A stretch of DNA of 52,857 nucleotides from a virus (taxonomy: Duplodnaviria; Caudoviricetes), in IMG/VR virus record IMGVR_UViG_3300020220_000072, positions 1 through 52,857 of that record. One strand, given 5' to 3'. This document shows positions 758 to 19,600 of the stretch, one piece after another. Under the pieces are notes generated by a model. That model was not told the DNA's origin. It searched no databases and was given only the letters and a program-made list of their open reading frames with translations. The position numbers and the translations under genes were made by a program. The stretch's first letter is position 1. Each line of letters begins with the position of its first letter.

Positions 758-2638
758 ATGGCATTCGGTCAGTACACAAATCTAGATTTTGATCAGATAA
801 AAGTTTCGATTCAGGATTACCTGAGAGCAAATAGCAATTTTACTGATTTTGATTTTGAAGGTTCGAATCTTTCGGTCCTGATTAATACCCTAGCTTATAA
901 TACATACATCACAGCGTACAATACAAATCTTGCAGTTAATGAATCATTTCTCGATTCTGCAATTCTAAGAGAAAATGTCGTCTCTCTTGTTAGGGGTATC
1001 GGATATGTTCCAAGATCAAGAAGATCGGCAATTGCAAAAATTTCATTCAGAGTCAATAACTTAACATCTCTTACTGCAACATTAAAGGCAGGAGTTGTTT
1101 GTAATGGTTCAGCAAATAATACTAATTTTATTTTTTCAATTCCTGAAGATGTAACCACAAATGTTATAAATGGAATTGCAAGATTTGATAATGTTGAAAT
1201 TTATGAAGGAACATTTGTTCAAACGAAATTCACAGTCAGTCAATCAGTTTACGATCAAAAATACATTTTACCAAACTCTTTTGTAGACACAAGTACAATC
1301 AGAGTCCTAATTAAATTATCCGAAAATTCTTCAGTATCTTCTGAATATAAGCAAGTTGATAATATTTTAAAGATTGATGGTCGATCAGACATTTATCTAA
1401 TTCAGGAAGTTTCTGACGAAAGATATGAATTATTATTTGGTGATGGAATCATCGGCAAAAAACTAGAGAATGGAAATGTTATTGATGTTTCATACATTAC
1501 AACATCTGGTAGAGGTGGAAATGGTGCCACTCAATTTAATTTGGTAGGAATTTTGAGAGATGAAAATAATACTATAATTGATCCAACAAATGTATCAAGA
1601 ATTACTACATCTCAATCATCAAGAAATGGTGATGAATCGGAATCAATTAATTCAATCAAACATTTTGCTCCAAGAATTTATTCCTCGCAGTATAGAGCAG
1701 TTACTGCATCTGATTATGAGTCAATTATCGGATACATCTATCCAAATGTAGATTCTGTGACTGCTTATGGTGGAGAAGAATTAAGTCCTCCACAATACGG
1801 AAAAGTTTTTATTTCAGTTAAACCAAGAAATGGTGATAAACTTCCAAATTCTACAAAAAGAGATCTTCTGTTAAAATTAAAAAATTATTCAATTGCAGGA
1901 ATTATTCCCCAATTTATTGATGCCAAGTATCTTTATGTTGAAATAGTTTCTTCAGTTTATTTTGACTATAATAAAAATAATAGAGTTTCTGATTTAAGAA
2001 CATTGATTTTAAGTTCATTGACGCAATATTCGCAGTCTATTGATTTGAATAAATTTGGAGGTAGATTTAAATATAGCAAAGTTTCATCATTAATTGATAA
2101 TGTTAATTATTCAATTACTTCTAACATAACAAGTGTTCTTATTCGCAGAGATTTAATTGCCGAAATTGATTCAAATGCTCAGTATGAAATTTGTTTTGGA
2201 AACGCATTTCATACATCAAAGGACACATACAACATTAATTCAACATCATTTAAAATTGTAGGAATTAATGATGATGTCTATTTGGCAGATAGAAGAGTTT
2301 CATCGACAACCGGTGAAATTTTCTTTTTTACTTATAAAGATTTAAAACCAAAAATTATTAAAAGAAATGCTGGAACTGTTAACTATGATACTGGAGAAAT
2401 TATTATAGATACTGTAAACATATCTTCAACAGCAGCACCAAATAATGTTATAGAAATTCAAGCCGTTCCACTTTCCAATGATGTCATTGGATTAAAAGAT
2501 TTATATGTTAGATTTGACGTTGGATCATCTAAAATTAATTTAATTCGTGACGTAATTTCTTCTGGAGAAAATACCTCTGGAACAAGATTGACCACACAAA
2601 CAAGTTACTATCAACCAGGATTTATAAGAGAACTCTAA
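758..2638 (+). CDS. gp6: Baseplate wedge subunit gp6
   Basis: LDFDQIK, FTDFDFEGSNLS, ESFLDSA..RENVVS and RAVTASDYE motifs. Confidence 0.96.
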   Translation: MAFGQYTNLDFDQIKVSIQDYLRANSNFTDFDFEGSNLSVLINTLAYNTYITAYNTNLAVNESFLDSAILRENVVSLVRGIGYVPRSRRSAIAKISFRVNNLTSLTATLKAGVVCNGSANNTNFIFSIPEDVTTNVINGIARFDNVEIYEGTFVQTKFTVSQSVYDQKYILPNSFVDTSTIRVLIKLSENSSVSSEYKQVDNILKIDGRSDIYLIQEVSDERYELLFGDGIIGKKLENGNVIDVSYITTSGRGGNGATQFNLVGILRDENNTIIDPTNVSRITTSQSSRNGDESESINSIKHFAPRIYSSQYRAVTASDYESIIGYIYPNVDSVTAYGGEELSPPQYGKVFISVKPRNGDKLPNSTKRDLLLKLKNYSIAGIIPQFIDAKYLYVEIVSSVYFDYNKNNRVSDLRTLILSSLTQYSQSIDLNKFGGRFKYSKVSSLIDNVNYSITSNITSVLIRRDLIAEIDSNAQYEICFGNAFHTSKDTYNINSTSFKIVGINDDVYLADRRVSSTTGEIFFFTYKDLKPKIIKRNAGTVNYDTGEIIIDTVNISSTAAPNNVIEIQAVPLSNDVIGLKDLYVRFDVGSSKINLIRDVISSGENTSGTRLTTQTSYYQPGFIREL

Positions 2639-2642
2639 AGAT

Positions 2643-5600
2643 ATGATAAGCACCTCATCACAAAGAGTCAAGATTAGTCAGGTAGTTCAAAACCAACTAC
2701 CAGAATTTATTTTAAATGAAAATCCACTGTTTTCTGATTTTTTAAAAAGTTATTATACATCGCAAGATCATCCAGGTGGTCCAGCAGATCTTGCTGAAAA
2801 TTTAGATTATTACACAAAACTTGATTCTTTGGTTGGATCTGCTTTAAGTAGTTACACTAGATTAAGTTATAGAATAGAACCATATACTAAAACGATTGTA
2901 GTTAATAGTACAGCAGGATTTCCAGAATCTTATGGATTAATTAAAATTAATAATGAGATTATCACTTATACTGGATTGTCAGCGACTAATCCAAATCAAA
3001 CATTTAAAATTACTGTAGAAGGAAGTGAATTATCAAATGAAGATGTTAAATTTTTTGTTAATGGTGTAGAGTCTGGTGAATTGAATTTAAAGAAGGGTGG
3101 AACTTATATCTTTGATCAATCTGATTCAAGCAATGATGGATATGATCTCAAAATTTCAACAACTCAAGATGGAACTTGGAATGCCGGAATTGCTTATACT
3201 ACAGGAATTACAGTTACTGGTGTTCTTGGTGCAAACAGAAAAACAACATTTATTGTTCCAGAATCTGCTCCTAATAATTTTTACTTATACAGTCCTACAA
3301 TTTCCAACATGTATGGAAATTCCGCAATTAATGTTGAGGTATTGCGAAAAAACACTTTTACTGGATGTATAAGAGGATTCAGTGGAATTGAAAAATTATC
3401 CAGAACCAATGTACCAGAATCTTTATCTTTTACAAAAACTTCTGCTCAATCTCATACAGAAAATTCACTTGTACAAAACTTAAGTAGTTTATTTGCCAGG
3501 GAATTCTTTAAAAAATTAAAATCACTTTATGCTCCAGATTTTCAGGGAGTTGAATTTGATTCAGATTTAAATCATGTTCAATTTATAAAGCAAATCAAAG
3601 ATTTTTATTCTTCTAAAGGAACTAATGAAGCAATTAAAATTTTGTTTAGAGTTCTTTATGGTGTAGAATCTGATGTAATTAAGCCTCAAGACTTTTTAAT
3701 TAAAGCATCTGATGCTGATTATTTGACAACTAAAAAAATGGTTGTTCAACATGCGAATCCTCTTTATAGAGAAAGATCTGCAAGAGAATTAGTAAATGTT
3801 CCTGATATTAAAAGAATAGAAGGATCCTCGTTAATACAATCTGATCCTAGAGCTACAACTTCTATTTCTAGAGTTGATGAATTTAGATATAAAAATCAAA
3901 GTTATTATCTGCTCTCACTACCAAATGATGAAAATTTAAGTCAATTTAGAATTACAAAAAAAACTAGATTAACTTCACCATTATCTATAAATTCAAAAAC
4001 AATAACTGTAGATTCTACATTAGGATTTCCAAATAAAGGAAGTTTAATCGTCAATGGGCAAGATGTTGTTTCTTACACGGACAAAACATTTAATCAATTT
4101 TTAAATATTTCAAAAATAAGTAGATCGTATACAAATGGTGATGAAGTTTCTGAAATTATTGATACGTATGCTTATGCAGCAGATGATTCTTCATTAAAAA
4201 TTAATGTTCACATTACTGGAGTATTATCTGATTTTGACATTCCTTCAGATTATTCTTTATTGAGACCTGGAGATACAATCAAAGCAGGATCTCAAGGATT
4301 TATAAAAAATGAAAAAGATGTTCTATTTAATAGTTGGTTAGTTAATACCAGTGTTAATTATCAAATTAAAGAAATTGAATCTACAACATCTTTTGGAATT
4401 TATAATGTGATTACAAAATCAAGTCACACATTCAATGAAAAGGATGCTGTGGAAATTGTTTTTACAGATTTAACTACAAAATCATGTATTATTAACACAA
4501 TTACAAATTCAAATTCATTTTCTATTTCAGAAGCAGGAACTCTAAATTTAAATAAAATTTTATATATTAGAAGAAAAATTGCATTTGCAAATAGCAACAT
4601 TTATGAAAATGTCAAATCTTTTTCTGCGGATGTTCAAAATGTTTACGACAGTAATGGTGATGCATATGTTGCCTCTGGATCTATACCATCTTTAGGTGGA
4701 AAAATAATCTCAGCAAAGAATAGATCTGTATCTTGGACTGGAACAACTGTTGATGTAAATATTCAAGTTACAACAGGATCAGTTGATCATGGGTTTTATA
4801 GTGGGGAAATTGTCAAATATACATCAATCAATGGATCTTTAGGTAATTTGATAAGTGATAAAAATTATTATGTGAGAAGAATTAATTCAAATGAAATTAA
4901 TCTTGCAAATAGTCTTGTAGATCTTGCTAACGATAGATTTGTAAATGCTTCTGGATCTGGTACATTTAAATTACAAATTCCAAAATTTGTTGATAAACAA
5001 ATACAAACACAAAGATTTTTAAAAAAAATTCCACAAAATCCAAATTTTGATGGTGGATTTTATGAAACTACTCCAGGAACCATTGGAATTTTGATTAATG
5101 GTGTAGAAATCAAAAACTATAAATCATCTGATAAAGTTTATTTTGGGTCAATAAATTCTATAGAAGTTTTGGGTGGTGGAAAAGATTACGACGTAATCAA
5201 TCCACCAAAAGTAATTTTTGAAAGTGAAAATGGAGTTGATGCGTCAGCTATTTGTTGTGTTAAAGGAGAATTGAAGGAAATAGAAATTCTTGATCCAGGA
5301 TTTGATTATGTTTCCGAACCAAAAATTTCTATTTCTGGTGGAAATGGATTTGGAGCAACTGCTGAAGTTAGACTCGAATCATTTTCACATTCCATGAATT
5401 TTAATGCAGGATCAATTGATTTAACTAATAACTTAATAGGATTTTCTACATTTCATAAATTTGAAAATGGAGAGGATGTTATTTATAGATCATTTGGTCA
5501 GCAAGAAATTGGTATTGGAACGACAGGCACTTTAATAAACAATACAATTTATTATGTTTCTAGAGTTGGTCCAAGTAGTATTGCGTTATCAAATAATTCT

Positions 5601-8600
5601 ACTGATGCTATAAATCAAACAAATTTAATTGATTTGAGAGAGGTTGGAAGTGGCATACAAAGATTTGATAGCGTTTCATTAAAGAAAAGAATTGGAGAAA
5701 TTATTGTTACTAATTCTGGCAGTGGGTATGCAAATAAAAAAAGACTCATTGCATCTTCTGGAATTATAACTTCAACCAATACATTATTTTATAAAAATCA
5801 CAACTATAATGATGGAGATTTAGTTTTATACAAAACTACGGGTATTCCAATTGGAGGATTATCAAACAATAATTATTATCATGTAATTAAAATTAATGAA
5901 AATAATTTTAGATTATCTTTTGCAGGATCCACAGAACTCGATGTTTCTAGAACTAATTATATTACAAATCAATTCATTGGCATCTCATCAATTGGGTCCG
6001 GATCACACATATTTAATTATCCACCAATTTCAGTTTTAGTGTCTGGAGAAATTGGAATTAAAAAGTCAGATACAGAAGATTATTCATCTAAAATAAGACC
6101 AATATTCGGAGGATCAATTACATCAATTGATTTGGAAAATGTTGGAAAAGGATATGGATATAGTACGATTATAAACAACTCTAAAGCAGTAAATGTAAGA
6201 GTTTCTGCTGCAGGAACTCAAAGTTTTTATAAAGCAATTTTAGATAAAACTGGATCAATTGTAGATGTCATTATTACAAAAAAAGGTGCTGATTACACAT
6301 CAGCACCAAAACTTAAAGTCATTGGTGATGGAGTGGGTGCAGAATTAGTTGCAGTTTCTTCTGGTAGTAGCGTTACTGGAGTAAAAATTAAGAATGGTGG
6401 TGTTGGATATTCTACATCAAATTTTGTTATACAAGAAATTCTTCCTGGATCTGGCGCAAAATTTTTAGTTAACTTAAAATCTTGGACAGTCAATGATGTT
6501 AAAAGGTACGAAAATAGTTTTAATGAGGATGATTTATTTTTAGAAGAAGGTGATGAGGGAAGAGGAATTAAATTAACTGCTTTGTATTCTCCAAGGGAAC
6601 TTAGAAAAAATTTAAAGCAAAAAAATAGCGATGGCAGCATTAATTACACACAAAATGATCTTATTTTTAAAAATAATACAGAAAAAATATCAAATTCACA
6701 TTCACCAATTATAGGATGGGCATATGACGGAAATCCAATTTATGGTCCATATGGATATTCTAACAAAAATGGCGGTAATATAAAATTAATGGTATCTGGA
6801 TATTCATTGAAATCTGCTCGTATAGATGGTCCTCCAACTTCAACATTTCCTCTTGGGTTTTTTATAGAAGATTATGAATTTTTAAATAATGCAGATCTGG
6901 ATGAAAAAAATGGTAGATTCTGTATTACTCCAGATTTTCCAAATGGAACCTACGCATATTTTGCAACAGTTAATCAATCTTTAAGTACTAAAGGTGTTTT
7001 TAAAAACTATAGAGAACCTCAGTTTCCTTATTTAATAGGTGATAAATATGCAGCAAATCCTGATGAGTTTAATTTCTCTAAAAAAAATTCGCAATATTCA
7101 AACATAAATTTAAACAATTATCATAGAAATACCTATCACTATAAACTAAATGATAAATTTACTTTTTATGATGGAATTTATCAAAATAATTTAGAGGAGG
7201 AATCTGATGTTATATTCACTTCACTTGGAGAAATTGATAAAGTTAAGATTTTAAATTCAGGTGAAAATTATCAAATTAATGACAGACTAGTTTTGGATGA
7301 AAAAAGTATCAATAGTGGATCTGATTTTTCTGCAAAAGTAAAGGAAGTTATTGGTGCAAAAACAATCTCTATAGGATATACTGCAGTTGATGTTGAAAAC
7401 GTCGTCTTCACGTACGATAATTTTAGTGGTAATGTGACTGGGCATTCACAGTCTCCACATAATTTATCGAATGGTGATGTAATTTCTATTAGTGGTGTAT
7501 CAACGAATTCTTTAGATAATTTAAATGGACAGCATTTGATTAATGTGTCTGATTTAAACTATTCGCTTTCAATTGGAATCGGAACTACTGGACAAACAGG
7601 AATCGTAACATCAATTTCAGTAGTAGGTCCAAGTATAACAGACTTAAATAATGTATCTCCAAATGATGTATTATCATTTGGAAATGAACAAATGTTGGTA
7701 TTAAATATAGATGCTGCTAATAGTAAATTAAGAGTTTTAAGAAGATATAGTGGAACTGGAGGAACTTCTATTTCTGCTGGAAATAAATTAAAAGTTTCAT
7801 CCAAAAAAATTAATTTTAATTTAGGAATTAGCACTAATGTTGAAACATTTAGAAATCTTTCATATTATTTTAATCCAAAGGAACATGTAGCAATTGGCAC
7901 TGCTTTTGGTGTTGGAATTGGATCAACTATTGTATACACTCTTAATGTTCCAGGTAACATCGGAAGAGAAAGATTTATACCAACAAGAACGATCTACTTA
8001 GAAAATCATCAATTTACAACAGGACAAGCATTAACATATTCAAATGGGTCGGGATCATCAATAGTTGTATCAAATGGATCTACAACATTCTCTCTTCAAG
8101 ATAATTCAACAGTTTATGCAATTAAAGTTAGTTCAGATCTGTTAGGAATTTCTACAACCACTGTTGGAATTGGTTCAAGCGGAAAGGTAGAGGGCATTGG
8201 TGCTCCCGGAGTTCAATTAAGATTTACTTCTATTGGTTCTGGTCAATACCACAGTTTTACTCCTCTTAAACCAGAATTCAAAGGAACTGTAAAAAAAGTT
8301 GTTGCAACGGTTGTTTGTGATGAAGATCATAATCTTTCATTAAATGAAGATGTAAAAATTTCTTTAACTCCTGGGATATCGACAACATTTTATGTTAAAT
8401 ACGATCAAGATACAAAATTAACTACATTTAATGAAATTACATTCAATTCGTCAGCAATTAGTTTGGATCAAGGTAAAATAACAATTAATAGTCACAATTT
8501 AAATACGGGAGATAAAATTTTATATACAAGTGCAAATGAAGCATCTCCATTAAAAACTAAAAAGTCTTACTATGTCGTAAAAATTGATAAAAATAATTTT

Positions 8601-10448
8601 AAATTATGTGAAAACTATTATAAGGCAACAAAACAATTTCCAGAATTTATCAACTTTACTTCAATTGGAGGATCTAATCAAAAAATTTCTAAAATTAATC
8701 CACAATTAATAGCAGTTAAAGGAAATACCGTAGTATTTGATTTATCAGATTCATCACTGAGTCAATCATTATCTGGCAAAAAGATTGAGGTTTTTGATTT
8801 TAACTTATATAAAGATAAAAATTTCACAATTCCATATTATTCAAATAATACCGAAAATGAGAAGAATTTCAATGTGATTAAATTTGGACAAGTTGGTATT
8901 GGGTCTGCTAAAGTCAAGTTAGAAATTACTGAAAGTACACCAGAGCAATTATTTTATAGATTAGAACCAAAATCTATCAATCTAATCCAAGACTTATTTA
9001 AATCTCCATTGGTTGATAGAGATGTTATTAATTACTCATGTCTACAGTCAAAGCAAATTAGTTATTTCAATGTATTGGGAAAAGTCGTTGGAATTGGTTC
9101 TACAACATTCAAAATAAATCTTTTGGATGAACCAGAAAAAAATTCATACAGTCAAAATGAAGCTACTGTACTTAAATTTTCCACAAATTCTCCAAACATA
9201 AAGGGTCCTATAGAAAAAATTGAAATAGTTTCAAAAGGAAGAAATTATTTTTATCCTCCAGTGGTAGTTTCTGCTGGAAGTTCAAATAACAACACTGCTT
9301 TGATTGAACTTTTTGGATCTAATATTGGATTGTTAAAAAAATATAACTTAAAAAACGTTGGATTTAATTATTCAGCAGATTTAACTTTGAGACCATTTGC
9401 TATTTTTCCACAAGCAATAAAATTAAAATCTTTGTTAAAAGTTGTTGACGTATCTTTACTAAATGGTGGATCTAAATATACAGTTTCTCCAGACTTAATT
9501 GTTGTAGATTCTATAACAAATCAATCTATACCTGGATTTTTATTTCAAACTTCTCTGAATGGAACATCCATTACAGATGTAAAGATTTTACAGATTCCAC
9601 AAAATCTTTTTTCAATTCCTCCAAAAATTATAGCAACAAACAATTCAAATGGAGTGGGAGTTCAAACAGTATCATTTAATTCTTCATTGAGAAGAGTAAC
9701 ATTAAAACTTAATGAAACTTTTTCTAATACTAATTTTCCATTTTTTGTTGGAGATAAAATTTTTGTAGAAAACATTGGTATTGTGTCTACAGGAAATGGA
9801 TATAATTCATCAGATTATAACTATAATCTATTTTCAATCGTTGGTGTAAATACATCAAATAGTGAAATTTCATATATAATAAACAATCAATCACCAGGAA
9901 CTTTTAAATTTAGTGGTTCTTTTCCAAAAGTAATTTTGGAAGAAGATTTGCCAATAATTACTCCTATCACAGAAAAAACTAAATTTAATAAACAGGAAGA
10001 AATTTATGTAGGATCTTCAAACTATGGAAAAATAATTTCCATAGATGAAGATAACAATGTCGCTAAAGTGATTATGGAAGTTGCTCCTATAAAATCTGGT
10101 GATGTGTTAATAGGTCAATCTTCAAAATCTTCAGCAATCGTTAGTGATGCTAATTATATAGAATCTTTCTTTAAAGTGTCTTCATCGTCAAAAACTGTTG
10201 ATGGATGGCAAAGAGACACTGGAAAATTGAGTGATGAAGTGCAAAAAATACATGATAGCGATTATTATCAATTTTTCTCATACTCAATTAAAAGTTCAAT
10301 TCCAAAGTCAAAATGGCAAAATATTGTTGATGCTACAACACACTCTGTCGGATTTAAAAATTTTGCAGATCTTGAAATTATTTCTGTTCCGGAAAATAAA
10401 GCAACAATACAATCTGCACTTATTAAACAAGAACCGACTATTTTTTAG
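2643..10448 (+). CDS. gp7: Baseplate wedge initiator gp7-like, N-terminal part (2601 aa); contains a YHYH-like segment and repeated beta-domains
   Basis: QLPEF/FLKSYY, IKDFYSSKGT..ILFRVLYG, HSPIIGWAYDGNPIYGPYGY, IHDSDYYQFFSYSIKS..HSVGFKNF; lies between gp6 and gp8. Confidence 0.88.
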   Translation: MISTSSQRVKISQVVQNQLPEFILNENPLFSDFLKSYYTSQDHPGGPADLAENLDYYTKLDSLVGSALSSYTRLSYRIEPYTKTIVVNSTAGFPESYGLIKINNEIITYTGLSATNPNQTFKITVEGSELSNEDVKFFVNGVESGELNLKKGGTYIFDQSDSSNDGYDLKISTTQDGTWNAGIAYTTGITVTGVLGANRKTTFIVPESAPNNFYLYSPTISNMYGNSAINVEVLRKNTFTGCIRGFSGIEKLSRTNVPESLSFTKTSAQSHTENSLVQNLSSLFAREFFKKLKSLYAPDFQGVEFDSDLNHVQFIKQIKDFYSSKGTNEAIKILFRVLYGVESDVIKPQDFLIKASDADYLTTKKMVVQHANPLYRERSARELVNVPDIKRIEGSSLIQSDPRATTSISRVDEFRYKNQSYYLLSLPNDENLSQFRITKKTRLTSPLSINSKTITVDSTLGFPNKGSLIVNGQDVVSYTDKTFNQFLNISKISRSYTNGDEVSEIIDTYAYAADDSSLKINVHITGVLSDFDIPSDYSLLRPGDTIKAGSQGFIKNEKDVLFNSWLVNTSVNYQIKEIESTTSFGIYNVITKSSHTFNEKDAVEIVFTDLTTKSCIINTITNSNSFSISEAGTLNLNKILYIRRKIAFANSNIYENVKSFSADVQNVYDSNGDAYVASGSIPSLGGKIISAKNRSVSWTGTTVDVNIQVTTGSVDHGFYSGEIVKYTSINGSLGNLISDKNYYVRRINSNEINLANSLVDLANDRFVNASGSGTFKLQIPKFVDKQIQTQRFLKKIPQNPNFDGGFYETTPGTIGILINGVEIKNYKSSDKVYFGSINSIEVLGGGKDYDVINPPKVIFESENGVDASAICCVKGELKEIEILDPGFDYVSEPKISISGGNGFGATAEVRLESFSHSMNFNAGSIDLTNNLIGFSTFHKFENGEDVIYRSFGQQEIGIGTTGTLINNTIYYVSRVGPSSIALSNNSTDAINQTNLIDLREVGSGIQRFDSVSLKKRIGEIIVTNSGSGYANKKRLIASSGIITSTNTLFYKNHNYNDGDLVLYKTTGIPIGGLSNNNYYHVIKINENNFRLSFAGSTELDVSRTNYITNQFIGISSIGSGSHIFNYPPISVLVSGEIGIKKSDTEDYSSKIRPIFGGSITSIDLENVGKGYGYSTIINNSKAVNVRVSAAGTQSFYKAILDKTGSIVDVIITKKGADYTSAPKLKVIGDGVGAELVAVSSGSSVTGVKIKNGGVGYSTSNFVIQEILPGSGAKFLVNLKSWTVNDVKRYENSFNEDDLFLEEGDEGRGIKLTALYSPRELRKNLKQKNSDGSINYTQNDLIFKNNTEKISNSHSPIIGWAYDGNPIYGPYGYSNKNGGNIKLMVSGYSLKSARIDGPPTSTFPLGFFIEDYEFLNNADLDEKNGRFCITPDFPNGTYAYFATVNQSLSTKGVFKNYREPQFPYLIGDKYAANPDEFNFSKKNSQYSNINLNNYHRNTYHYKLNDKFTFYDGIYQNNLEEESDVIFTSLGEIDKVKILNSGENYQINDRLVLDEKSINSGSDFSAKVKEVIGAKTISIGYTAVDVENVVFTYDNFSGNVTGHSQSPHNLSNGDVISISGVSTNSLDNLNGQHLINVSDLNYSLSIGIGTTGQTGIVTSISVVGPSITDLNNVSPNDVLSFGNEQMLVLNIDAANSKLRVLRRYSGTGGTSISAGNKLKVSSKKINFNLGISTNVETFRNLSYYFNPKEHVAIGTAFGVGIGSTIVYTLNVPGNIGRERFIPTRTIYLENHQFTTGQALTYSNGSGSSIVVSNGSTTFSLQDNSTVYAIKVSSDLLGISTTTVGIGSSGKVEGIGAPGVQLRFTSIGSGQYHSFTPLKPEFKGTVKKVVATVVCDEDHNLSLNEDVKISLTPGISTTFYVKYDQDTKLTTFNEITFNSSAISLDQGKITINSHNLNTGDKILYTSANEASPLKTKKSYYVVKIDKNNFKLCENYYKATKQFPEFINFTSIGGSNQKISKINPQLIAVKGNTVVFDLSDSSLSQSLSGKKIEVFDFNLYKDKNFTIPYYSNNTENEKNFNVIKFGQVGIGSAKVKLEITESTPEQLFYRLEPKSINLIQDLFKSPLVDRDVINYSCLQSKQISYFNVLGKVVGIGSTTFKINLLDEPEKNSYSQNEATVLKFSTNSPNIKGPIEKIEIVSKGRNYFYPPVVVSAGSSNNNTALIELFGSNIGLLKKYNLKNVGFNYSADLTLRPFAIFPQAIKLKSLLKVVDVSLLNGGSKYTVSPDLIVVDSITNQSIPGFLFQTSLNGTSITDVKILQIPQNLFSIPPKIIATNNSNGVGVQTVSFNSSLRRVTLKLNETFSNTNFPFFVGDKIFVENIGIVSTGNGYNSSDYNYNLFSIVGVNTSNSEISYIINNQSPGTFKFSGSFPKVILEEDLPIITPITEKTKFNKQEEIYVGSSNYGKIISIDEDNNVAKVIMEVAPIKSGDVLIGQSSKSSAIVSDANYIESFFKVSSSSKTVDGWQRDTGKLSDEVQKIHDSDYYQFFSYSIKSSIPKSKWQNIVDATTHSVGFKNFADLEIISVPENKATIQSALIKQEPTIF

Positions 10449-10479
10449 TAATAAATAATTAAAAGTCGGCGGTTCAATG
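10431..10479 (+). promoter_or_regulatory. Late promoter inside a hairpin that occludes a GGCGG RBS-like sequence
   Basis: GAACCGACT(10431-39) pairs with AGTCGG-CGG-TTC(10464-75); AATAAATA at 10450-57; ATG at 10477. Confidence 0.7.
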
Positions 10480-10620
10480 GAAGAAGACATTTTTATTATA
10501 GAAGAAAATACTCAAGTTAGTAGTAAAATTGAACTTGATACTGTTATTTCAGTCAATCACCGTATTGACTTTGATTTTTGTGCTGAAAATACTATAAACA
10601 TTTTGACTCAAAATCAGTGA
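10477..10620 (+). CDS. Middle fragment of gp7-like protein, 47 aa (MEEDIFIIEENTQVSSKIELDTVISVNHRIDFDFCAENTINILTQNQ)
   Basis: ATG 10477, TGA 10618-20; DFDFCAEN resembles the DFDxxxEN segment I recall just before the DYxE..NRV.IDDIS motif in continuous cyanophage gp7. Confidence 0.65.
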   Translation: MEEDIFIIEENTQVSSKIELDTVISVNHRIDFDFCAENTINILTQNQ

Positions 10621-10631
10621 GGTAAATTTCA

Positions 10632-13600
10632 ATGTCATTTAAAAAAATTTCAAATGAAATTTATCTAGAAAATAAAGTTGTTAGTGATTATATAGAATGT
10701 ATTACTAATAGAGTTATTCCTATTGATGACATAAGTTTTGCCTTTAGGGATGAATCCAGACTTACAAATTTTTCTATTTTAGATAGTATAGATTTAAATT
10801 TATTTGATTCTATTAAGTATTATTTTTTAATTTATAACGTTAGATTTACTGGAGAAAGTCAATTAATTCAAATAAATTTTACCCATGATGGAGTAAATGG
10901 ATTTTTAGTTCCATTCGGAAGAATAGAATCGTTATATGATCTAGGAAATTTCGAATTTAGTCTTTCAGAAACATCATCAAATACCGGACAATTACTTTTT
11001 TATCCATCAAATCCAATTTTCAGTAGTTATTCAATTCGATCTGTAAAAATACCATTTTTAAGCAATGTTGGAGTTGGCACTACTGGAATAACTATTGGAA
11101 ATTCGTTTAGTATTCAATCAACCAATACTGGTATCACTTCTTCAGTTTCTCCAACTCCAGTTGGAATTGTATCATTCTCTGCATCCGAATTTACATCTTC
11201 AAAATTTTCTATTCAAGTTAAAGATTTAGAAAACACATCAATAAAACAATTTAATGAATTTATTTTAGTTCAAGATGGTGCATCATCGATTCTCCATAAT
11301 TTAGATTATGGGACAATTAATACAGATAATCCACTGTTTGAATCATCATCAATTGGTCTCGGAACATTTGGATCATCTATTTCTGGTGGAAATGTATTTT
11401 TAGAATTTACTCCAATTGAAAATAAAACCCTCAGTGTAAGCGTTTTTCAAACATCAATTGATAGTTCTAAAACTGGAATAAGTAGTTTAGCAATTGGTGA
11501 AGCAAAGTACTTAACCTCATATACATCAATAGCATCCACCTCATCACCTATACCAACAAGATTAAGTGGATTTAGCAGTTCAATTTATAATGCTGCCGAT
11601 TATTTCATAGAAATTAAAAATGTAACCGATAGTACATTTGAATCATCTCAGATTTTACTATTGCATAATACATCTAATATTTTTTATAGTGAATTTGCTA
11701 ATGTATCTACTTCATCTGGAATTGGATCTTTTTCAGCACAATTTAATGGATCTGAGGTCGAACTTTTATTTACACCACCACAAAATAAAGCAGTAGAAGC
11801 AAGAATAATTCAATTAAATTTACCCAATCAATCATCAGTAGGAATTACATCCTTTCAAAATAATCAAATACAAAGTTTTGATGCAACATACCTCGCATCA
11901 AATGATGATACTTCAAGAACATTTAATTTAAAACATAAAGGAGATGACCTTTTTTATAAGGAATTTGTAGGATCTAGTTCAACCGTAGTTGATACCACAA
12001 ATGATGTAATCACGATCAAAAATCACTTTTTTACTACCGGAGAACCAATTTTATATTTGCCACCAAAAGATATTGCTACTGCATCTTTAATTCAAAATGC
12101 TAGAATAGGTATAGCAACGACATCAATTGCTGGTATAGGAACAACAGATAAACTTCCTTCAAATTTATATGCTGTAAAAATTTCCGAAACTAAGTTCAAA
12201 GTTGCAGACACTGCAGAAAAGGCACTTGCTATTCCACCAATAACAATTGATATTTCAAATTTAGCACCAATCACAGATTTAAAGCATTCATTTGAAAGCT
12301 CAGTAAACGCTACAACAAAATCAATAATTTCTATTGATAATACAATTCAGTCTCCACTTACCAAAACAAATTTATCATTTAGTTTGGGTGAAAATATTAC
12401 TGATTTCCAACCATCATTTTCTGTTGTTGGTGTGGTATCATTTTTTGCAGGTGATTTGTTAAGAATTGAAGAAGAATACATGAGAGTTAAAACCATTTTT
12501 GAAAATGTCGTAAATGTTGATAGAGGATGGCTTAATTCCACATATTCACCACATTCAATTGGTTCAACCATAACAAAATACATCGGTGACTATCTAATTG
12601 CTAAAAATAAAATTTCATTTTCAGATCCTCCCAAAGGATTAAAAGGATTTTCTGGCATTCAAACATCTTCTTCATTTGCTGGTAGAGTATTTTTTAGGCA
12701 AAATTCTGAGGATTCATCAACACAATCATACGCAGAAAATTATCTTTTTGATAATATTGCTGAGCAATTTAATGGAGTTACTAAAATTTTCAATTTGACA
12801 GAAGATCAACAAAATGTAACTGGAATTTCAACTTATGGTGGAATTATTTTAATTAATCAAGTTCTACAACATTCTCCAGAAAATTATGTTTTGGGTGAAA
12901 ATAGTGGAATCACTACAATAACATTTGTTGGCACAGCTTCCTCAACAAACTACGATGTAAATACAGCAAGCATTCCAAAAGGTGGAATTATAGTATCTGT
13001 GGCAAGTAGTGTTTCTTATGGATATCAATCATTAGTTGCAGCTGGTGGCACGGCAATTATTTCTGGCATTGGATCAATTTCATCTATTTCGATAGGAAAT
13101 AGTGGATCTGGTTATAGATCTGGTATACAAACTAGTGTCATAGTAAAAGCAATAACAAATTCTGGTATTATTACTGTTGGAAATGCAAACGTTTCATCCG
13201 GTATAGTTACTTCAGTAACTATAACAAATGCAGGAAGTGGATATACATCTTCAAATCCACCAAAAATTGTAATAGATGATCCTCTTCCATATGCAAATTT
13301 ACCTTTAATAGGCAGTGCAACAGGAATTGGTGGTTCAGTGTCTATTGTTGTCGGATCTGCTTCAAGTATTGTTAATTTCGAAATAACAAACTATGGAAGT
13401 AATTATAAAGTTGGAGATGAATTAACCATAGAATCTGGAGGATCTGTTGGTGTTCCAACAGATCCTATAGTTGGAGTTGCTTTCTCTTCATTTAGATTGT
13501 CTGTAACCAGAACTTATGATGATTCATTTAGTGGATGGAGTCTTGGAGAACTTTTAAGATTAGATTCAATTTCTGATCAATTTGATGGAATGGAAACTGT

Positions 13601-15101
13601 ATTTAAAATCACAGAACAAAATGGAATTCCATTTTCATATGCAGCAACAAAAGGTTCTCAAATTTTCATAGATCAAAATTTCTTAGTTTTTGTAAATGAT
13701 GTATTACAAATACCAATAGAAAGTTATAAAATTATTGGTGGATTAATACGATTTACTGAGGCACCAGTTGCAGATGATACCTGTCAGATTTATTTTTATA
13801 AAGGTTCTGATTCTGATGTAAAGTCTAAAAAAATAATTTCTCCTATAAAAATTGGAGATAACATAAAAATTTCAAATTTTCCGGAGTCTAATAATTTTGA
13901 AGACTATCAAACTGAAAGAACTATTGTTGGTATAGAAACTAGAACTACAAATATTTTTAACACAAATACTTATGGTGGAGATGGAATTTCAAATTCCAAG
14001 GATTATTTGAGACCTTTAGATTTATTAAAGCAATCATCAGACTTAATTATAAATGGTATTGAATTGCCAAAGGATAGACCTTTGATATCTTCTAGAATTT
14101 ATCCAGTTTGCTATTTAATTAATAATGTTAGCTCTGCTTCAACTGAAATTTTTGTAAATTATCTTGTGCCTCTTTTTAATGAATATGATGATTATCCAAA
14201 AAATTTATCAAAAATAAAAATAATCAAACAGCAAGAAAAATCTGGAGCAATTGCAACTGCGATTGTATCAGGAATTGGTTCAATTTCATCAATTAAAATT
14301 AATGACGGTGGAATTGGTTTCAGCACTTCACCAGTTGTATCAATCGCTTCAACAATTGGAGTAGGAACTGTTAATGACGGTATTGTTGTTTATACTTCTA
14401 ACGCATCAGCAACGGCAATTATTTCTGGAGTTGGAACAGTTTCGTCAGTACAAATAGTAAATGGTGGTCTTGGATATACTTCATCAAATCCACCAAAAGT
14501 TTTAATAGAGTCCGAAGCACAATTTTCAGAGTCAATTAGAAATCTAAGTTACGAAGGAGATTTTGGAATTATTACGGGTATTGCTTCCACATCAATCGTA
14601 GGTATTGCTACAACCGGTATTAATTTTGATTTGTTTGTACCAATTGATTCACCTCTTAGAGATTCTTCTCTTATGACAACTGCTATTGAATATAGCGGTA
14701 TCAAAACTGGGTATTACTTTGTGGTTACTGATTCAAATTTAAATTCTCCAAACATTTCATATTCTTCAGCATCTGGATCATCTGGAACAATTGTTGGAGT
14801 TGGAACTACTTTTATTGATAACATTTATGAAGTTGTTGGAGTTTCTACTATCATTGGAGATGCTATTGGTATTGGATCCACAGTATTGACAAGAGTTACT
14901 GTTAGTGTTAATGATAATAGTTTAATTTCAACTGGAACTAGCGATTTCTACGGTAATTATTCTTGGGGTAGAATTTATGACTATAAACGAGAAAATCCAA
15001 AATCATTCGAATCTTATACAACTAACGGATCTATTGGAATAGAAACTGGACCATTAGTAATTAGAACAGTTGAGTTGTTAGATTCTTATGACCTATATTA
15101 G
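10632..15101 (+). CDS. gp7-like protein, C-terminal part (1489 aa)
   Basis: Starts with DYIECITNRVIPIDDIS and ends with FYGNYSWGRI; SD GAGGT at 10619-23; GSGY/GIGT repeats. Confidence 0.85.
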   Translation: MSFKKISNEIYLENKVVSDYIECITNRVIPIDDISFAFRDESRLTNFSILDSIDLNLFDSIKYYFLIYNVRFTGESQLIQINFTHDGVNGFLVPFGRIESLYDLGNFEFSLSETSSNTGQLLFYPSNPIFSSYSIRSVKIPFLSNVGVGTTGITIGNSFSIQSTNTGITSSVSPTPVGIVSFSASEFTSSKFSIQVKDLENTSIKQFNEFILVQDGASSILHNLDYGTINTDNPLFESSSIGLGTFGSSISGGNVFLEFTPIENKTLSVSVFQTSIDSSKTGISSLAIGEAKYLTSYTSIASTSSPIPTRLSGFSSSIYNAADYFIEIKNVTDSTFESSQILLLHNTSNIFYSEFANVSTSSGIGSFSAQFNGSEVELLFTPPQNKAVEARIIQLNLPNQSSVGITSFQNNQIQSFDATYLASNDDTSRTFNLKHKGDDLFYKEFVGSSSTVVDTTNDVITIKNHFFTTGEPILYLPPKDIATASLIQNARIGIATTSIAGIGTTDKLPSNLYAVKISETKFKVADTAEKALAIPPITIDISNLAPITDLKHSFESSVNATTKSIISIDNTIQSPLTKTNLSFSLGENITDFQPSFSVVGVVSFFAGDLLRIEEEYMRVKTIFENVVNVDRGWLNSTYSPHSIGSTITKYIGDYLIAKNKISFSDPPKGLKGFSGIQTSSSFAGRVFFRQNSEDSSTQSYAENYLFDNIAEQFNGVTKIFNLTEDQQNVTGISTYGGIILINQVLQHSPENYVLGENSGITTITFVGTASSTNYDVNTASIPKGGIIVSVASSVSYGYQSLVAAGGTAIISGIGSISSISIGNSGSGYRSGIQTSVIVKAITNSGIITVGNANVSSGIVTSVTITNAGSGYTSSNPPKIVIDDPLPYANLPLIGSATGIGGSVSIVVGSASSIVNFEITNYGSNYKVGDELTIESGGSVGVPTDPIVGVAFSSFRLSVTRTYDDSFSGWSLGELLRLDSISDQFDGMETVFKITEQNGIPFSYAATKGSQIFIDQNFLVFVNDVLQIPIESYKIIGGLIRFTEAPVADDTCQIYFYKGSDSDVKSKKIISPIKIGDNIKISNFPESNNFEDYQTERTIVGIETRTTNIFNTNTYGGDGISNSKDYLRPLDLLKQSSDLIINGIELPKDRPLISSRIYPVCYLINNVSSASTEIFVNYLVPLFNEYDDYPKNLSKIKIIKQQEKSGAIATAIVSGIGSISSIKINDGGIGFSTSPVVSIASTIGVGTVNDGIVVYTSNASATAIISGVGTVSSVQIVNGGLGYTSSNPPKVLIESEAQFSESIRNLSYEGDFGIITGIASTSIVGIATTGINFDLFVPIDSPLRDSSLMTTAIEYSGIKTGYYFVVTDSNLNSPNISYSSASGSSGTIVGVGTTFIDNIYEVVGVSTIIGDAIGIGSTVLTRVTVSVNDNSLISTGTSDFYGNYSWGRIYDYKRENPKSFESYTTNGSIGIETGPLVIRTVELLDSYDLY

Positions 15102-15107
15102 ATAGAG

Positions 15108-15115
15108 CATAAATA
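15108..15115 (+). promoter_or_regulatory. Late promoter
   Basis: CATAAATA in the intergenic gap before gp8. Confidence 0.75.
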
Positions 15116-15136: not shown

Positions 15137-16693
15137 ATGCCTGCAATTATTACTGATCAATTTCGTATTAAAAGTGCAGAATCTTTTGTTTCAGGTATCA
15201 CTGGAATAGGTTCTACTTCTAATAATTATTATTTGTGGATTGGGTTGCCAAATTCCTCAGAAATTTCAGCAACATGGGACGATAATCCACCAGCACCAAA
15301 GGATGCAATTGCTGAAGAAAATGATTATTGGGATACAATGATGGCATTAAAAAAAATTAATGCCGATGATGTAGTCAGAGTAGTAAGAAAGAATGTTTGG
15401 AGGTCTGGAACATTTTATGACTATTATAGACATGATTATAGTAGAACAAACTTATCCAATGTGACCTCGGCAACAAATTTGTATAGTGCAAATTATTATG
15501 TTGTAAACTCCGACTATAGAGTATATATTTGTCTACAGAATGGGACTGATCCAGAAAATCCTCTTGGCAGACCTTCTTTAGATGAACCAACATTCACTGA
15601 TTTAGAACCAAGGTCTGCTGGAACTAGCGGTGATGGATACATTTGGAAATATCTTTATACTATTAAGCCGAGTGAAATTATAAAGTTTGATTCAACAAAT
15701 TTTATGCCAGTTCCAAATAATTGGGAAACTGGGGCACAATATCAAGCAGTAAGGAATAATGCTTTAGATAGTGGTCAAATTAAAATTATTACAATTAAAA
15801 ACCGTGGAGTTGGATATGGAACTGCTGCAACATACAATAATGTGCCTATTAGTGGAGATGGTAAAGATGCCACATGTTCAGTTATTGTTAATAGCGCAGG
15901 AACCATTGATGCAGTAGAAATTACAAATGGTGGAGTTGATTATACATTTGGAACCGTTGATTTAGATGTTGCAGGAATTACTAATGGTGGATCTACTGAT
16001 GCTGAGATGGAAGTTATTATTCCACCATCTCAAGGGCATGGATATGATGTTTACAAAGAACTCGGAGCATATCGGGTTTTAATTTATTCTAGATTGGAGA
16101 ATGATACTTTAAATCCAGATTTTATTGTTGGAAATCAATTTTCAAGAGTAGGAATAGTGAAAAATCCTATTGCATATAATTCTACCGAATTATTAAATTT
16201 ATCAAAGGCAAGTTCTGTCTATGCATTAAAGTTAAGTGGATCAAATGTTACTACAACATCTTTCACTCCAGACTCATACATTCGTCAAACAGTTGGATCT
16301 GGAGTTACTGCTGTTGGTAGAGTTATTTCATGGACATCATCTACAGGTATTTTAAAATATTGGCAAGATAAAAAATTGGCAAGTGGTGCTACGGCAACAT
16401 ATGGGTATAAATTACAAAGATTTACATCTTCACCAGAATCTGGTGGAAATACTACAATTTTAGGTGGATCTAATAGTTTAACAATTGACACAAATTTTGG
16501 AACAACATCAGAACCAGGTATTAAAACTACAATAAATAGTAAGACATATTATTTGGGTCAAGGTTTTGTTAATGGAATTGCAAATCCAGAAGTTAAAAAG
16601 TATAATGGTGAAATTGTTTATGTTGACAATCGTGCAGCAGTAACTAGATCTTCCACACAAAAAGAAGACATCAAAATTGTATTGGAATTTTAA
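15137..16693 (+). CDS. gp8: Baseplate wedge subunit gp8
   Basis: MPAIITDQFRI, YRVYICLQN, DGYIWKYLYTI, C-terminal QKEDIKIVLEF. Confidence 0.95.
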   Translation: MPAIITDQFRIKSAESFVSGITGIGSTSNNYYLWIGLPNSSEISATWDDNPPAPKDAIAEENDYWDTMMALKKINADDVVRVVRKNVWRSGTFYDYYRHDYSRTNLSNVTSATNLYSANYYVVNSDYRVYICLQNGTDPENPLGRPSLDEPTFTDLEPRSAGTSGDGYIWKYLYTIKPSEIIKFDSTNFMPVPNNWETGAQYQAVRNNALDSGQIKIITIKNRGVGYGTAATYNNVPISGDGKDATCSVIVNSAGTIDAVEITNGGVDYTFGTVDLDVAGITNGGSTDAEMEVIIPPSQGHGYDVYKELGAYRVLIYSRLENDTLNPDFIVGNQFSRVGIVKNPIAYNSTELLNLSKASSVYALKLSGSNVTTTSFTPDSYIRQTVGSGVTAVGRVISWTSSTGILKYWQDKKLASGATATYGYKLQRFTSSPESGGNTTILGGSNSLTIDTNFGTTSEPGIKTTINSKTYYLGQGFVNGIANPEVKKYNGEIVYVDNRAAVTRSSTQKEDIKIVLEF

Positions 16694-16699
16694 ACTACC

Positions 16700-19600
16700 A
16701 TGCCACAGGAAACTAATCTTAACAATAGTCCTTATTTTGACGATTTTAATCGTGACAATGAATACTATAGGGTTCTGTTTAAGCCCGGACTTCCAGTACA
16801 ATCTAGAGAATTAACAACTCTTCAATCTATTCTTCAAAATCAAATTGAACAATTTGGAAAACATTTCTTCAAGGAAGGTTCAAAAATTATTCCAGGAAAT
16901 TTGACATATGACAATGAATTTTATGCTGTTCAAATAGAACCAACTTCTTCTGGAATTGATGTTGAATTATATTTAAATCAACTCGTTGGCAAACAAATAC
17001 AAGGGTTGTCATCGGGTGTAACTGCCACTGTAAGAAAAGTCTTGTCATCTGCCGATTCTGAAAGAGGGACGAATACCCTTTACATTCAGTATCGTGGTTC
17101 TAATTCAACAAATCAATCAATTAGAGAATTTTCAAATGCTGAGCAGTTAGTCTGCACTTCTTTGATTCGTTTTGGATTAAGATCAATTCCAGCAAATCAA
17201 CCATTTGCGACTACTATTTCATCAAATGCAACGTCGATTGCTTCAGCAATGTCTGTTGGTGATGGTGTTTATTTTGTTAGAGGAACTTTTGTTGAAGTTC
17301 AAAAACAAACAATTTTATTAGATCAATATTCCCCAAATCCATCCTATAGAGTTGGATTTGATGTAGTTGAAAGAATTGTAACTGCAGATGAAGACCCAAA
17401 ATTAAATGATAACGCACAAGGATTTTCAAATTATACTGCCCCTGGAGCGGATAGATTAAAAATTAGTTTGATTTTTTCAAAAAGATCTTTAGAATCTTTT
17501 GAAGACAAAGATTTTGTTGAGATTGCTAGAGTAGAAGATGGCATACTTCAATCGTTCAAAAAAGATACTCAATATAGTTTAATTCGAGATGAATTAGCCA
17601 AAAGAACTTTTGATGAATCTGGTGATTATTATATAAAACCATTTGACGTATTTGTTAAAGAATCTCTTAATGATAGAGAAGGTAGTAGAGGAGTATATTT
17701 ACCATCACAAAAGACAGATCAAGGAAATACTCCATCAGACAATTTATTAGCAGTTGAAATTTCTCCAGGAAAAGCATACGTAAAAGGATATGATATTGAA
17801 AAAATAGCATCTTCAATTTTAGATGTTCCGAAAGCAAGAGATACGAAACAAGTTAAAAATTTAACGGTAGGTATAAATTGTGGTACTGATATTTTATTAA
17901 ATAATGTTTATGGATCTGCTTCAATAGGAATAGGAACTACTGCAAAAGTAGAGTTATTAAGCAATAGAATGGTGGGATCATCTTATCATTCTACAGGAAT
18001 TCCAATAGGTGAGGCAAGAGTTTATGATTTTAATTTAAATAAAGTTTCATATTTAAATCAAGCAACACCATTTAAAATTTCTTTATTTGATATTGAAGTT
18101 TATACACAACTTGAATTAAATTCAAATATTTCTCTTAATGAATCCGATTTTATTGAAGGGAATCGAAGTGGTGCTAGTGGGTTTGTTGTGTCTGCAACAT
18201 CAAATTCAAAAACGGTAAAGTTAACAAGCACCGTTGGTGAATTTTATAGAAATGAACAGATAAAAATTAATGGAATTATTAATTCAAGAATTATTCTTAA
18301 AGCAATAGATTATAACATTAATGATGTTAAAGCACTCAGAAGTTCTGTAGGTATAGTAACTTTTTCTGCAGACACTTCATTATCCAAGGAAAAATCATTA
18401 AACATTCAAAATTCTTCTACATATTTTATTACAAAAACAGGATCAAATTCTGGAATAATTACTGCACCAACTAGAGTTTTTAGTGGCATTGTAACTTCAG
18501 GAGACATTCTTTCATATAGAATTTCTGGATTAAAAGTTCCAACCTTTAATGTTGTAACTGGAATCTCAACAGATGGAGATACAATCAATGTTAGTGGTGT
18601 TTCAACTATTGCCAATGTGTGCGATGGAGCAGTTCAGGCAGGAACAATAAACAATTTGGTTTTATCATCACCCTTAATTGATGAGGGAGATAATAGTTTA
18701 ACAACTCCACTTCCACACAATAACATTAAAGATGTTGATATTACATCATCGCAAATTCAAATCAGAAAAAGATTTGACAATCTTACAATTTCTTTAAGTT
18801 CATTTACAACTCCTTCTGCAGGAACCGATTTACTTTTTCAACCATTCACAATAGATAGATACTTCATTAGCTATGATGATGGAACTATTGAAAATTTAAC
18901 TCCAGACAAATTTTCAATCTCTGAAAATAAAAAAACAGTCACATTTAAAGGTTTATCAAAATCAACCGGTAAAGCAGATTTACTTGCAACTTTACTTAAG
19001 AATAAAATTAGATTAAAAGAAAAAACTTTACAAAAAGCATCAACTTTAGTCCTTACAAGATCCCAGTTAACTTCATCAAAAAATAGTGTTGATGGATTAA
19101 CTTTTAATAGAATCTACGGAACTAGAATTCAAGATCAAAAAATTAGTTTAAATGTTTGTGATGCTGTAGAACTTCTTGGAGTTTTTGAATCTGATAGTAA
19201 TTCAAATCCAGATTTACCAGGTTGTGTTCTAACATCGTTTACTGGTCCAACGGCGAATACATCTGGAGTTTTAATTGGAGAAAAAATTATTGGTGAAAAT
19301 AGTGATGCTGTAGCAATAATTGCAGAAAAACCAAGTTTAAGTTCAGTGGGATTTGTCTATTTAAATAATAATGTTTTTTCTGTTGGTGAAAAAGTTACAT
19401 TTGAAAATTCAGGAATAACTGCTTTAGTTTCCTCCTGCTCCAAAGGAGATAAAAACATAACAAACTATTATTCTTTATCAACTGGTATTCAACCAACATT
19501 CTATGATTACAGTTATATAACTAGAAAAAAAGATTCTCCAATTCCATCCAGAAGACTAAAAATTGTATTCAATCATTTTATTGTTGAACAATCTGATAAT

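Follow-up and report, generated by a model that had tools for sequence, protein, structure and literature searches.

Introduction

Proteins encoded in pieces are familiar from T4-type phages: a topoisomerase subunit is encoded as genes 39 and 60, and gene 43 and nrdA are split in some Aeromonas phages. These classical split genes encode enzymes, and several of them involve an inserted mobile element or translational bypass. In the cyanomyoviruses, the giant baseplate protein gp7 is usually the product of a single gene of about 4000 to 5200 codons. Here, we describe a gp7 locus in the IMG/VR virus record IMGVR_UViG_3300020220_000072 (hereafter "the window," meaning the whole 52,857-nucleotide stretch that was analyzed), in which gp7 is encoded by three consecutive open reading frames (ORFs). 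The explanation that best accounts for this arrangement, and one that we consider highly probable, is that gp7 has been cut at two points, giving three genes in the window phage and in a small clade of its relatives.

The closest described counterparts are the single-chain gp7 "baseplate wedge initiator" proteins of phages P-SSM2, S-T4, Bellamy, S-SCSM1, and P-TIM68 (PHROG 2885), with which the locus is collinear and shares neighbors, motifs, and a similar total length. It differs from them in that the chain is cut twice, has three starts of its own, and carries an internal late-promoter motif at the first cut. As in the classical T4-type split genes, one ancestral protein is encoded by adjacent ORFs whose products are thought to reassemble; however, the window has neither an inserted gene nor a bypass signature, and its middle fragment is only 47 amino acids (aa) long. 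A third point of comparison is the late promoter of cyanomyoviruses and T4 (NATAAATA and TATAAATA, respectively). The motif in the window, its strand bias, and its distance of 22 to 44 nucleotides (nt) from gene starts match the account in the text of PMC2984593, whereas the predicted promoter in gp7 lies within the coding sequence of other phages, and its A/T-rich letters supply the stop codons of ORF1. The text of Sullivan et al. 2005 (PMC1079782) proposes that in the giant cyanophage genes, fibre-like parts have been fused to gp7. The literature search turned up no account of a cyanophage gp7 in pieces (PMC1079782, PMC3037559, and PMC2984593, with supplementary tables outside the search).

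Results

Three ORFs take the place of one gp7 gene

The original prediction, made from the DNA alone, described pieces of 2601, 47, and 1489 aa separated by spacers of 28 and 11 nt, and both the ORF list and the sequence bear this out (Table 1). Spacer 1 occupies positions 10449-10476, and spacer 2 occupies positions 10621-10631; the 3' end of ORF1 reads ATT TTT TAG, and the 47-aa ORF ends with TGA at 10618-10620. The 47-aa ORF had also been placed out of frame with its neighbors. This holds, with the correction that ORF1 and ORF3 share a frame, since their starts are 7989 nt apart (10632 - 2643 = 3 x 2663), so that only the 47-aa ORF is shifted, by +1. At junction 1, frame 0 shuts at 10446, and the frame of the 47-aa ORF opens only past the stop at 10456-58; at junction 2, the frame of the 47-aa ORF shuts at 10618-20, and that of ORF3 opens only past the stop at 10623-25. 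Since at both junctions the upstream frame shuts before the downstream frame opens, a single insertion or deletion bridges neither of them. Each piece carries one motif, namely HSVGFKNF in ORF1, DFDFCAEN in the 47-aa ORF, and DYIECITNRVIPIDDIS in ORF3. The three motifs occur in the same order within continuous gp7 chains; the original claim that they are consecutive in a single chain elsewhere was borne out by alignments.

Table 1. Features of the split gp7 locus and its flanking genes in the window
Feature	Positions	Strand	Details
gp6 baseplate wedge gene, upstream neighbor	758..2638	+	PF21379 Gp6-like_1st, E 5.5e-17; PF21387; phrog_219, E 3e-192
gp7 piece 1 (ORF1, 2601 aa), N-terminal ~63% of giant gp7 baseplate wedge protein	2643..10448	+	ATG start
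Three consecutive in-frame stops (TAG TAA TAA) ending ORF1 and overlapping the promoter-like motif	10446..10454	+	
Late-promoter-like motif AATAAATA, fits cyanomyovirus NATAAATA	10450..10457	+	Core ATAAATA 26 nt before the ATG of the 47-aa ORF
gp7 piece 2, 47-aa micro-gene with DFDxxEN motif	10477..10620	+	ATG start; +1 frame relative to ORF1 and ORF3
Shine-Dalgarno sequence GAGG overlapping the TGA of the 47-aa ORF	10619..10622	+	9 nt before the ATG of ORF3
gp7 piece 3 (ORF3, 1489 aa), C-terminal part of giant gp7	10632..15101	+	ATG start
gp8 baseplate wedge gene, downstream neighbor	15137..16693	+	PF09215 Phage-Gp8, E 3.7e-12; phrog_438; own ATAAATA at 15109

The two large pieces are collinear with the phrog_2885 "baseplate wedge subunit" profile (PHROG 2885): ORF1 covers positions 114-2459 of 4179 (E 0), and ORF3 covers positions 2512-3360 (E 2e-253). 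The gap of 52 positions between them is the place where the 47-aa ORF aligns. PHROG 2885 proteins are typically encoded as one polypeptide, while this locus has three ORFs with stops between them, and it is therefore a split variant rather than a typical member. ORF1, which contains the Pfam domains PF23786 Baseplate_wedge (residues 309-350) and YHYH (residues 1347-1446), aligns with the gp7 of P-SSM2 and S-T4 as far as the junction, and tblastn with ORF3 matched the gp7 of 17 phage records. Together, the pieces amount to 4137 aa, against 4067 to 5195 aa for single-chain gp7; in both P-SSM2 (5195 aa) and S-T4 (4749 aa), one gp7 chain spans the equivalents of both junctions. The YHYH domain (PF14240; E 4.5e-26) lies at window positions 6681-6980.

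The split layout is inherited in diverged lineages

Logan contigs from all four of four runs cover positions 10200-10900 at a depth of 25 to 88 with no differences and no gaps, although these runs may include the source sample. The contigs give the broken layout, identically in each run, and not a continuous frame. Three relatives (L003, L004, and L005), which are 74%, 54%, and 53% identical to the window over the first 400 residues of ORF3, have the same arrangement: a large ORF ending at the same aligned place, an ORF of 46 to 49 aa starting with MEEE/D, and an ORF of 1478 to 1490 aa starting with M-S/Q-x-K-K-I-S-N-E. A further locus, L014, nearly duplicates L004 (99.98%), and the DNA of L005 matches that of L004 at 95% identity; the split loci therefore represent three well-separated lineages.

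A collection of 5.8 billion proteins yielded two more stand-alone 47-aa proteins (P0005 and P0006; 89% and 83% identical) and six 90%-identity clusters of stand-alone ORF3 (100, 74, 68, 54, 54, and 52% identical; 1478 to 1490 aa), which all begin at the same first residue with M[SQ]x[KR]KISNE. In the other 47 ORF3 matches in this collection, at ≤38% identity, the junction either lies inside the protein or is lost at the end of a contig. The same small protein is also present as a 63-aa version, P0004 (window 10477-10668), on 18 contigs, in which TGA is read as W. P0004 looks like a gene call made under another genetic code and does not count as evidence of read-through.

The ratio of nonsynonymous to synonymous substitution rates (dN/dS) is 0.18 to 0.51 for the small ORF and 0.06 to 0.33 for flanks of 300 codons, with a synonymous divergence (dS) of about 0.5 to 1.2 between lineages. 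Every piece is under purifying selection, each has its own start and stop that are kept in the relatives, and the layout has been passed down in lineages so far apart that synonymous sites are saturated. The earlier suggestion of a real gene fission rather than an error is thus well supported by the identical contigs and by the same layout in diverged relatives. The locus is best read, from its sequence, as a real, inherited double fission that would yield three separately translated polypeptides.

At these junctions, gp7 is nearly always continuous outside this clade

Where the window has its two junctions, the gp7 frame runs on without a break in 10 of 10 named phage or single amplified genome (SAG) records (P-SSM2, S-T4, Bellamy, S-SCSM1, P-TIM68, B23, SynMITS9220M01, S-B05, S-SM2, and the SAG-derived AG-345-E15) and in 80 of 80 IMG/VR loci at 28 to 37% identity, 79 of which are open to the end of the locus. 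In a second set, fetched with the protein P0025, 42 of 43 loci are unbroken there too. Had homologs normally been encoded as separate genes, the idea of a fission would have lost its basis; a single gene is instead the rule in the named records and the IMG/VR loci alike.

In a maximum-likelihood tree of 82 rows, computed from the flanking parts with the junction columns left out and with a quick search, the four split rows group together as a clade (SH-like approximate likelihood ratio test [SH-aLRT], 99), and one change explains the trait. When P-SSM2 and S-T4 are assumed as the outgroup, the split clade is one of three lineages whose branching order the tree leaves unresolved. A single fission in the ancestor of the window's clade is the parsimonious reading. 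Both cuts lie in variable loops that flank a short, highly conserved segment (..LNCxxDFDLxxEN..) in the middle of a central module of gp7.

The 47-aa ORF corresponds to the middle of gp7

In an alignment of the four split sequences (joined by X at the breaks) with five continuous ones, the 47-aa ORF aligns between the G-F/L-K-N/K-F and NRVxxIDDIS motifs, and its DFDFCAEN falls on the DFDLxxEN of Bellamy and S-SCSM1. When it was aligned with the middle segments of 73 continuous IMG/VR gp7 sequences, E37 of the 47-aa protein was invariant, and F32 and D33 were present in at least 90% of sequences. A profile built from the middle segment of the 73 continuous homologs only was then compared with the 1373 six-frame stop-to-stop peptides of the window; the frame of the 47-aa ORF was found at E = 6.8e-5, and the next best peptide had an E value of 0.46. 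This reverse profile search supersedes a search of a four-sequence profile of the small ORF against five continuous gp7 proteins or segments, which gave weak results: the match to Bellamy was in the right place (E 0.0025), and the best match to P-SSM2 was misplaced. The 47-aa ORF accordingly aligns to gp7, as had been supposed, at its middle segment. Among 7988 off-frame windows of 47 codons in ORF1 and ORF3, 117 (1.5%) are open. No fused form of the peptide was found among proteins of 84 to 2000 aa, which is a weak negative, since giant proteins lie beyond these length limits.

The alternative that survives best is that the split between ORF1 and ORF3 is real and the 47-aa ORF is nonfunctional, either as a relic or as a short upstream ORF that loads ribosomes for ORF3, in which case the virion would do without the DFDxxEN segment. 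The ORF has only 47 codons and no Shine-Dalgarno (SD) sequence in any lineage, its dN/dS exceeds most of the flank comparisons, and the peptide by itself has no family match in Pfam or PHROGs, all of which is what such a remnant would lead one to expect. However, the residues that are invariant or nearly so in 79 aligned sequences (E37, F32, and D33) are kept in all six known versions of the small protein, and the positions of start and stop are conserved at a dS of about 1. Furthermore, the length of the small ORF varies by whole codons only (46, 47, and 49 aa), whereas the spacers on either side vary by non-multiples of 3. We consider a nonfunctional 47-aa ORF improbable.

The pieces have the pattern of separate cistrons

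Programmed recoding, in which a frameshift or a bypass of the kind known from T4 gene 60 would carry ribosomes over both spacers and yield some full-length gp7, had been offered as an alternative in the original prediction. It draws on the common frame of ORF1 and ORF3 in the window, on spacers that are short, and on the T-rich end of ORF1. The four split loci disfavor it. The window has frame relations of 0/1/0, L003 has 0/2/1, and L004 and L005 both have 0/1/1. In the window, L003, L004, and L005, spacer 1 measures 28, 32, 22, and 22 nt and spacer 2 measures 11, 14, 15, and 15 nt, respectively. The last sense codons of ORF1 are TTT, ATT, AGA, and AGT, so that no take-off and landing pair is conserved. 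In 4 of 4 loci, every one of the three frames is stopped within spacer 1; the open frames overlap at neither junction, and the ATG with which each piece starts is kept at the same place in the alignment. Across the four loci, we found no conserved slippery site, no frame overlap, and no take-off and landing pair with a fixed gap. Because recoding would need conserved geometry, and the spacers, frames, and last codons drift, the pattern is that of three independent cistrons, and recoding is very improbable here.

Least credible of all is a sequencing or assembly error, or a defective population in which gp7 was inactivated not long ago: plain frameshifts do occur in giant genes on metagenomic contigs (L108 and L135), but the contigs of four runs agree at 25 to 88x, the layout recurs in relatives down to 52% identity, ORF3 is intact at 1478 to 1490 aa with a dN/dS of 0.06 to 0.33, and the junctions are clean successions of stop, signal, and ATG, unlike those of L108 and L135.

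Two other origins were rejected. An intein or intron is ruled out on size, as the spacers are 11 to 32 nt long with no extra sequence. The resemblance between the ORF1 tail "PENxATV" and "EENTQV" in the small ORF is too weak for a small duplication, and the length of the linker is within the range of continuous homologs.

Each cut carries a candidate expression signal

The sequence ATAAATA, the core of the late-promoter-like motif, precedes the small ORF's ATG by 23 to 28 nt in each of the four split loci; NATAAATA is given as the cyanomyovirus late promoter in the text of PMC2984593. The + strand of the window has 19 copies of ATAAATA and two of its reverse complement. Nine of the 19 copies lie 15 to 50 nt upstream of gene starts, in intervals that make up 2.1% of the sequence, and among the 21 permutations of its letters, only the overlapping TAAATAA scores equally. 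The motif at 10450-10457 has the features of a gp55-type late promoter, lying on the coding strand a few tens of nt ahead of the start of a late gene. A similar arrangement precedes gp8, which has an ATAAATA 28 nt before its ATG and no SD sequence, as for the 47-aa ORF. In spacer 2, an SD sequence precedes the ATG of ORF3 in all four loci: GAGG in the window, GGAG in L003, GAGGA in L004, and GGGGA in L005. Motif statistics and conservation thus agree with the late promoter and the SD sequence that the original prediction had proposed, and we predict a late promoter in spacer 1, the activity of which we infer.

gp7 is split elsewhere near its middle

Three other kinds of clean break were found in other lineages. 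The first is the two-piece gp7 of L100 (L100:2983-3003; protein P0025, 1549 aa), in which TAA, one base, and ATG follow each other with AGGAG ahead. The variable linker broken here is the one that holds the first cut in the window, and L101 and L124, relatives at 71% identity, have an unbroken gp7. The second kind is a shared cut, "..SFNI* / MTTK..", about 30 residues past the NRVxxIDDIS motif in L129, L132, and L136 (at 3238) and in the more distant L148 (at 3256); the spacers are 5 to 9 nt (9 nt in L148), and the frames differ between loci. The third lies about 381 to 385 residues past the equivalent of the ORF3 start in phages B3 (hit H55) and B23 (L095, 2655-2658), as well as in L043 (2154) and L151 (4264). 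In B3 and B23, two coding sequences annotated as "baseplate wedge initiator" overlap in ATGA; the junctions of B23 and L151 are overlaps of the form ATGA or TAATG, and that of L043 is a spacer of 30-odd nt with the SD sequence AAGGAG. Two further breaks, L108:2732 and L135:4831, are plain frameshifts with overlapping open frames and no start signal, and are probably assembly errors or recent mutations.

Since these three independent clean splits occur in other lineages, fission of gp7 is recurrent near its middle. Like the split in the window, the two-piece forms of other Kyanoviridae are clean stop/start fissions within about 450 residues of the same central module, and no fewer than two of the types are shared by diverged loci. 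Unlike the window, they have a single cut, at other positions (only L100 is cut in linker 1), and no micro-gene. Their junctions are mostly tightly coupled, with overlaps or spacers of 1 to 9 nt, L043 excepted, compared with the window's spacers of 28 and 11 nt. Only in the window's clade were two cuts seen together with a micro-gene and a predicted internal promoter, the other junctions not having been scanned for ATAAATA.

The cuts surround a conserved central module

The central module comprises about 150 residues, contributed by the end of ORF1 (~70), the small protein, and the beginning of ORF3 (~35), and it is the most conserved part of the alignments. The most conserved gp7 stretch (window 9700-10740) reads GWxxxTGxL..DxDYYQxFSYSxKS..HxxGFKxF..DFDLxxEN..NRVLxIDDIS. 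For the continuous relative L015, an AlphaFold2 model across the junction (600 aa, 73-row alignment) had a mean predicted local distance difference test score (pLDDT) of 69, with residues 183-333, the module, below 50. The module modeled alone (181 aa, 96 rows) had a mean pLDDT of 52, and only a hairpin at residues 122-140 reached about 74; no fold was assigned to the module. The central module may fold only in assembly, as far as these models indicate. The hairpin (residues 122-129 and 132-140; block pLDDT of ~74) belongs to the continuous relative, and its turn aligns with junction 2; the model gives a faint hint that strands could pair across this junction. A prediction of the three-chain complex from the C-terminal 180 aa of ORF1, the N-terminal 150 aa of ORF3, and the 47-aa peptide (alignments of 70 to 73 rows) scored 0.01 against a mark of 0.32 and is evidence neither way.

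Searching the junction alignment profile against the PDB sequences gave no matches at E values up to 1, and no solved structure of a giant gp7 was found by this search or in the literature. Past the module, residues 449-562 of the L015 (601-2400) model match the C-terminal domain of T4 gp9, the connector of the long tail fibre (1qex_A; Z 12.8; root mean square deviation, 2.3 Å over 111 residues). By alignment, this gp9-like domain corresponds to about residues 150-265 of ORF3, at about window positions 11080-11430; it also matches the C-terminal domains of Acinetobacter phage tailspikes. Residues 336-435 of the model form an Ig-like sandwich (Z 5.7), a match that is not distinctive.

The window phage is a T4-like cyanophage

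The window is a complete IMG/VR virus record with a G+C content of 32.6%, and all of its large ORFs are on the + strand. Pfam and PHROG matches give the gene order gp6-gp7-gp8, which is that of P-SSM2 and places the three ORFs in the gp7 baseplate block, and the major capsid protein is 82.6% identical to P-SSM2 gp23. From these neighbors, the gene order, and the capsid identity, the phage is assigned to the T4-like cyanophages (family Kyanoviridae), and, judged by its sequence, the window is a fragment of such a phage from lake-water metagenomes. The 20 runs in which the region was found and which are labeled lake-water or freshwater metagenome are all possible sources and hence not independent. 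All runs with the region carry freshwater or lake labels, yet the capsid protein has this high identity to that of P-SSM2, a marine Prochlorococcus phage. In a blastn search of a deposited phage collection, the junction DNA gave matches of 60 to 100 nt only, with no close DNA relatives. Directly after gp8 is a second giant ORF (2522 aa; 16700-24268); P-SSM2 likewise has a very large hypothetical gene there.

Discussion

The split gp7 of the window and its relatives can be accommodated in a simple scheme. ORF1 would be translated from an upstream gp25-gp6 late message and would terminate in the stop-rich motif TAGTAATAAATAA. The same motif would double as a gp55-type late promoter, from which a second message would start about 13 to 20 nt before the ATG of the small ORF. 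On this message, the 47-aa peptide would be translated from a short leader lacking an SD sequence, as gp8 appears to be, and ribosomes would be passed to ORF3 via the SD sequence 9 nt before its ATG, by coupled or independent initiation. The three polypeptides could then rebuild, non-covalently, the central module that is one chain elsewhere, with the 47-aa peptide supplying the DFDxxEN element and its C-terminal strand pairing with the N-terminal strand of ORF3. Such assembly of the three pieces in trans is suggested by the fact that no part of the conserved module has been lost. With a promoter inside the locus, expression of the 47-aa peptide and of the distal 1489-aa part may be independent of that of the 2601-aa part near the baseplate, and the stoichiometry of the C-terminal part may be altered accordingly.

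Several points weigh against a double fission into three functional, reassembling pieces. The dN/dS of the small ORF, calculated from only ~47 codons, is somewhat above that of the flanks, and no SD sequence precedes the small ORF in any of the split lineages (window, L003, L004, and L005). The total of 19 ATAAATA copies is no higher than a rough composition estimate of our own (~26 per strand); because the total count is not raised, a function for this sequence is argued only by its strand and position bias. Among 22 runs, none listed as containing the region is an RNA run, so promoter activity, translation of the small ORF, and presence in the virion are what we infer from DNA. The central module, where the pieces would fit together, was modeled only at low pLDDT. 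Finally, the direction of change, fission as opposed to fusion, is mainly a matter of parsimony, because the root was assumed on P-SSM2 and S-T4, where long branches meet.

Gene fission itself is a known kind of event that recurs in gp7. What appears to be new is that an internal fragment of 47 residues is kept as a conserved gene of its own, that, on the sequence, a late-promoter motif seems to double as the terminator of the upstream reading frame, and that independent cuts appear clustered around one conserved module. The 47-aa gene probably encodes a functional micro-protein of a kind that automated annotation would miss, and it is a leftover internal piece of a 4000-residue protein rather than a de novo gene. 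For annotation more generally, not every set of neighboring "gp7" fragments on a cyanophage contig should be put down to frameshift errors.

We also raise a bolder and, as it stands, doubtful idea, that the central module is a self-assembling joint between a baseplate-anchored half of gp7 and a distal half with a gp9-like domain. In this freshwater clade, the 47-aa peptide, formerly the middle element of the joint, would be a free "staple," expressed from its own late promoter along with the distal half; the latter would be variable in amount or swappable, and the recurrent fissions (four types) would mark a general break-point for the exchange of host-recognition parts in the Kyanoviridae. 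If this were true, the distal half could be made in different amounts, or exchanged between phages, with the proximal half untouched.

T4-like cyanophages are abundant, and few of their virion proteins are as large or as poorly understood as the giant gp7. Natural fissions show where the chain tolerates cutting and therefore mark real module boundaries, and those described here point to the conserved, unmodeled central segment as an assembly joint. The clade is a ready-made three-part complementation system for the assembly of the cyanophage baseplate periphery, and it allows one to ask whether the internal late promoter uncouples the distal, probably host-facing, part. Collectively, the split gp7 is not a new kind of system but a natural experiment on a poorly known giant virion protein.

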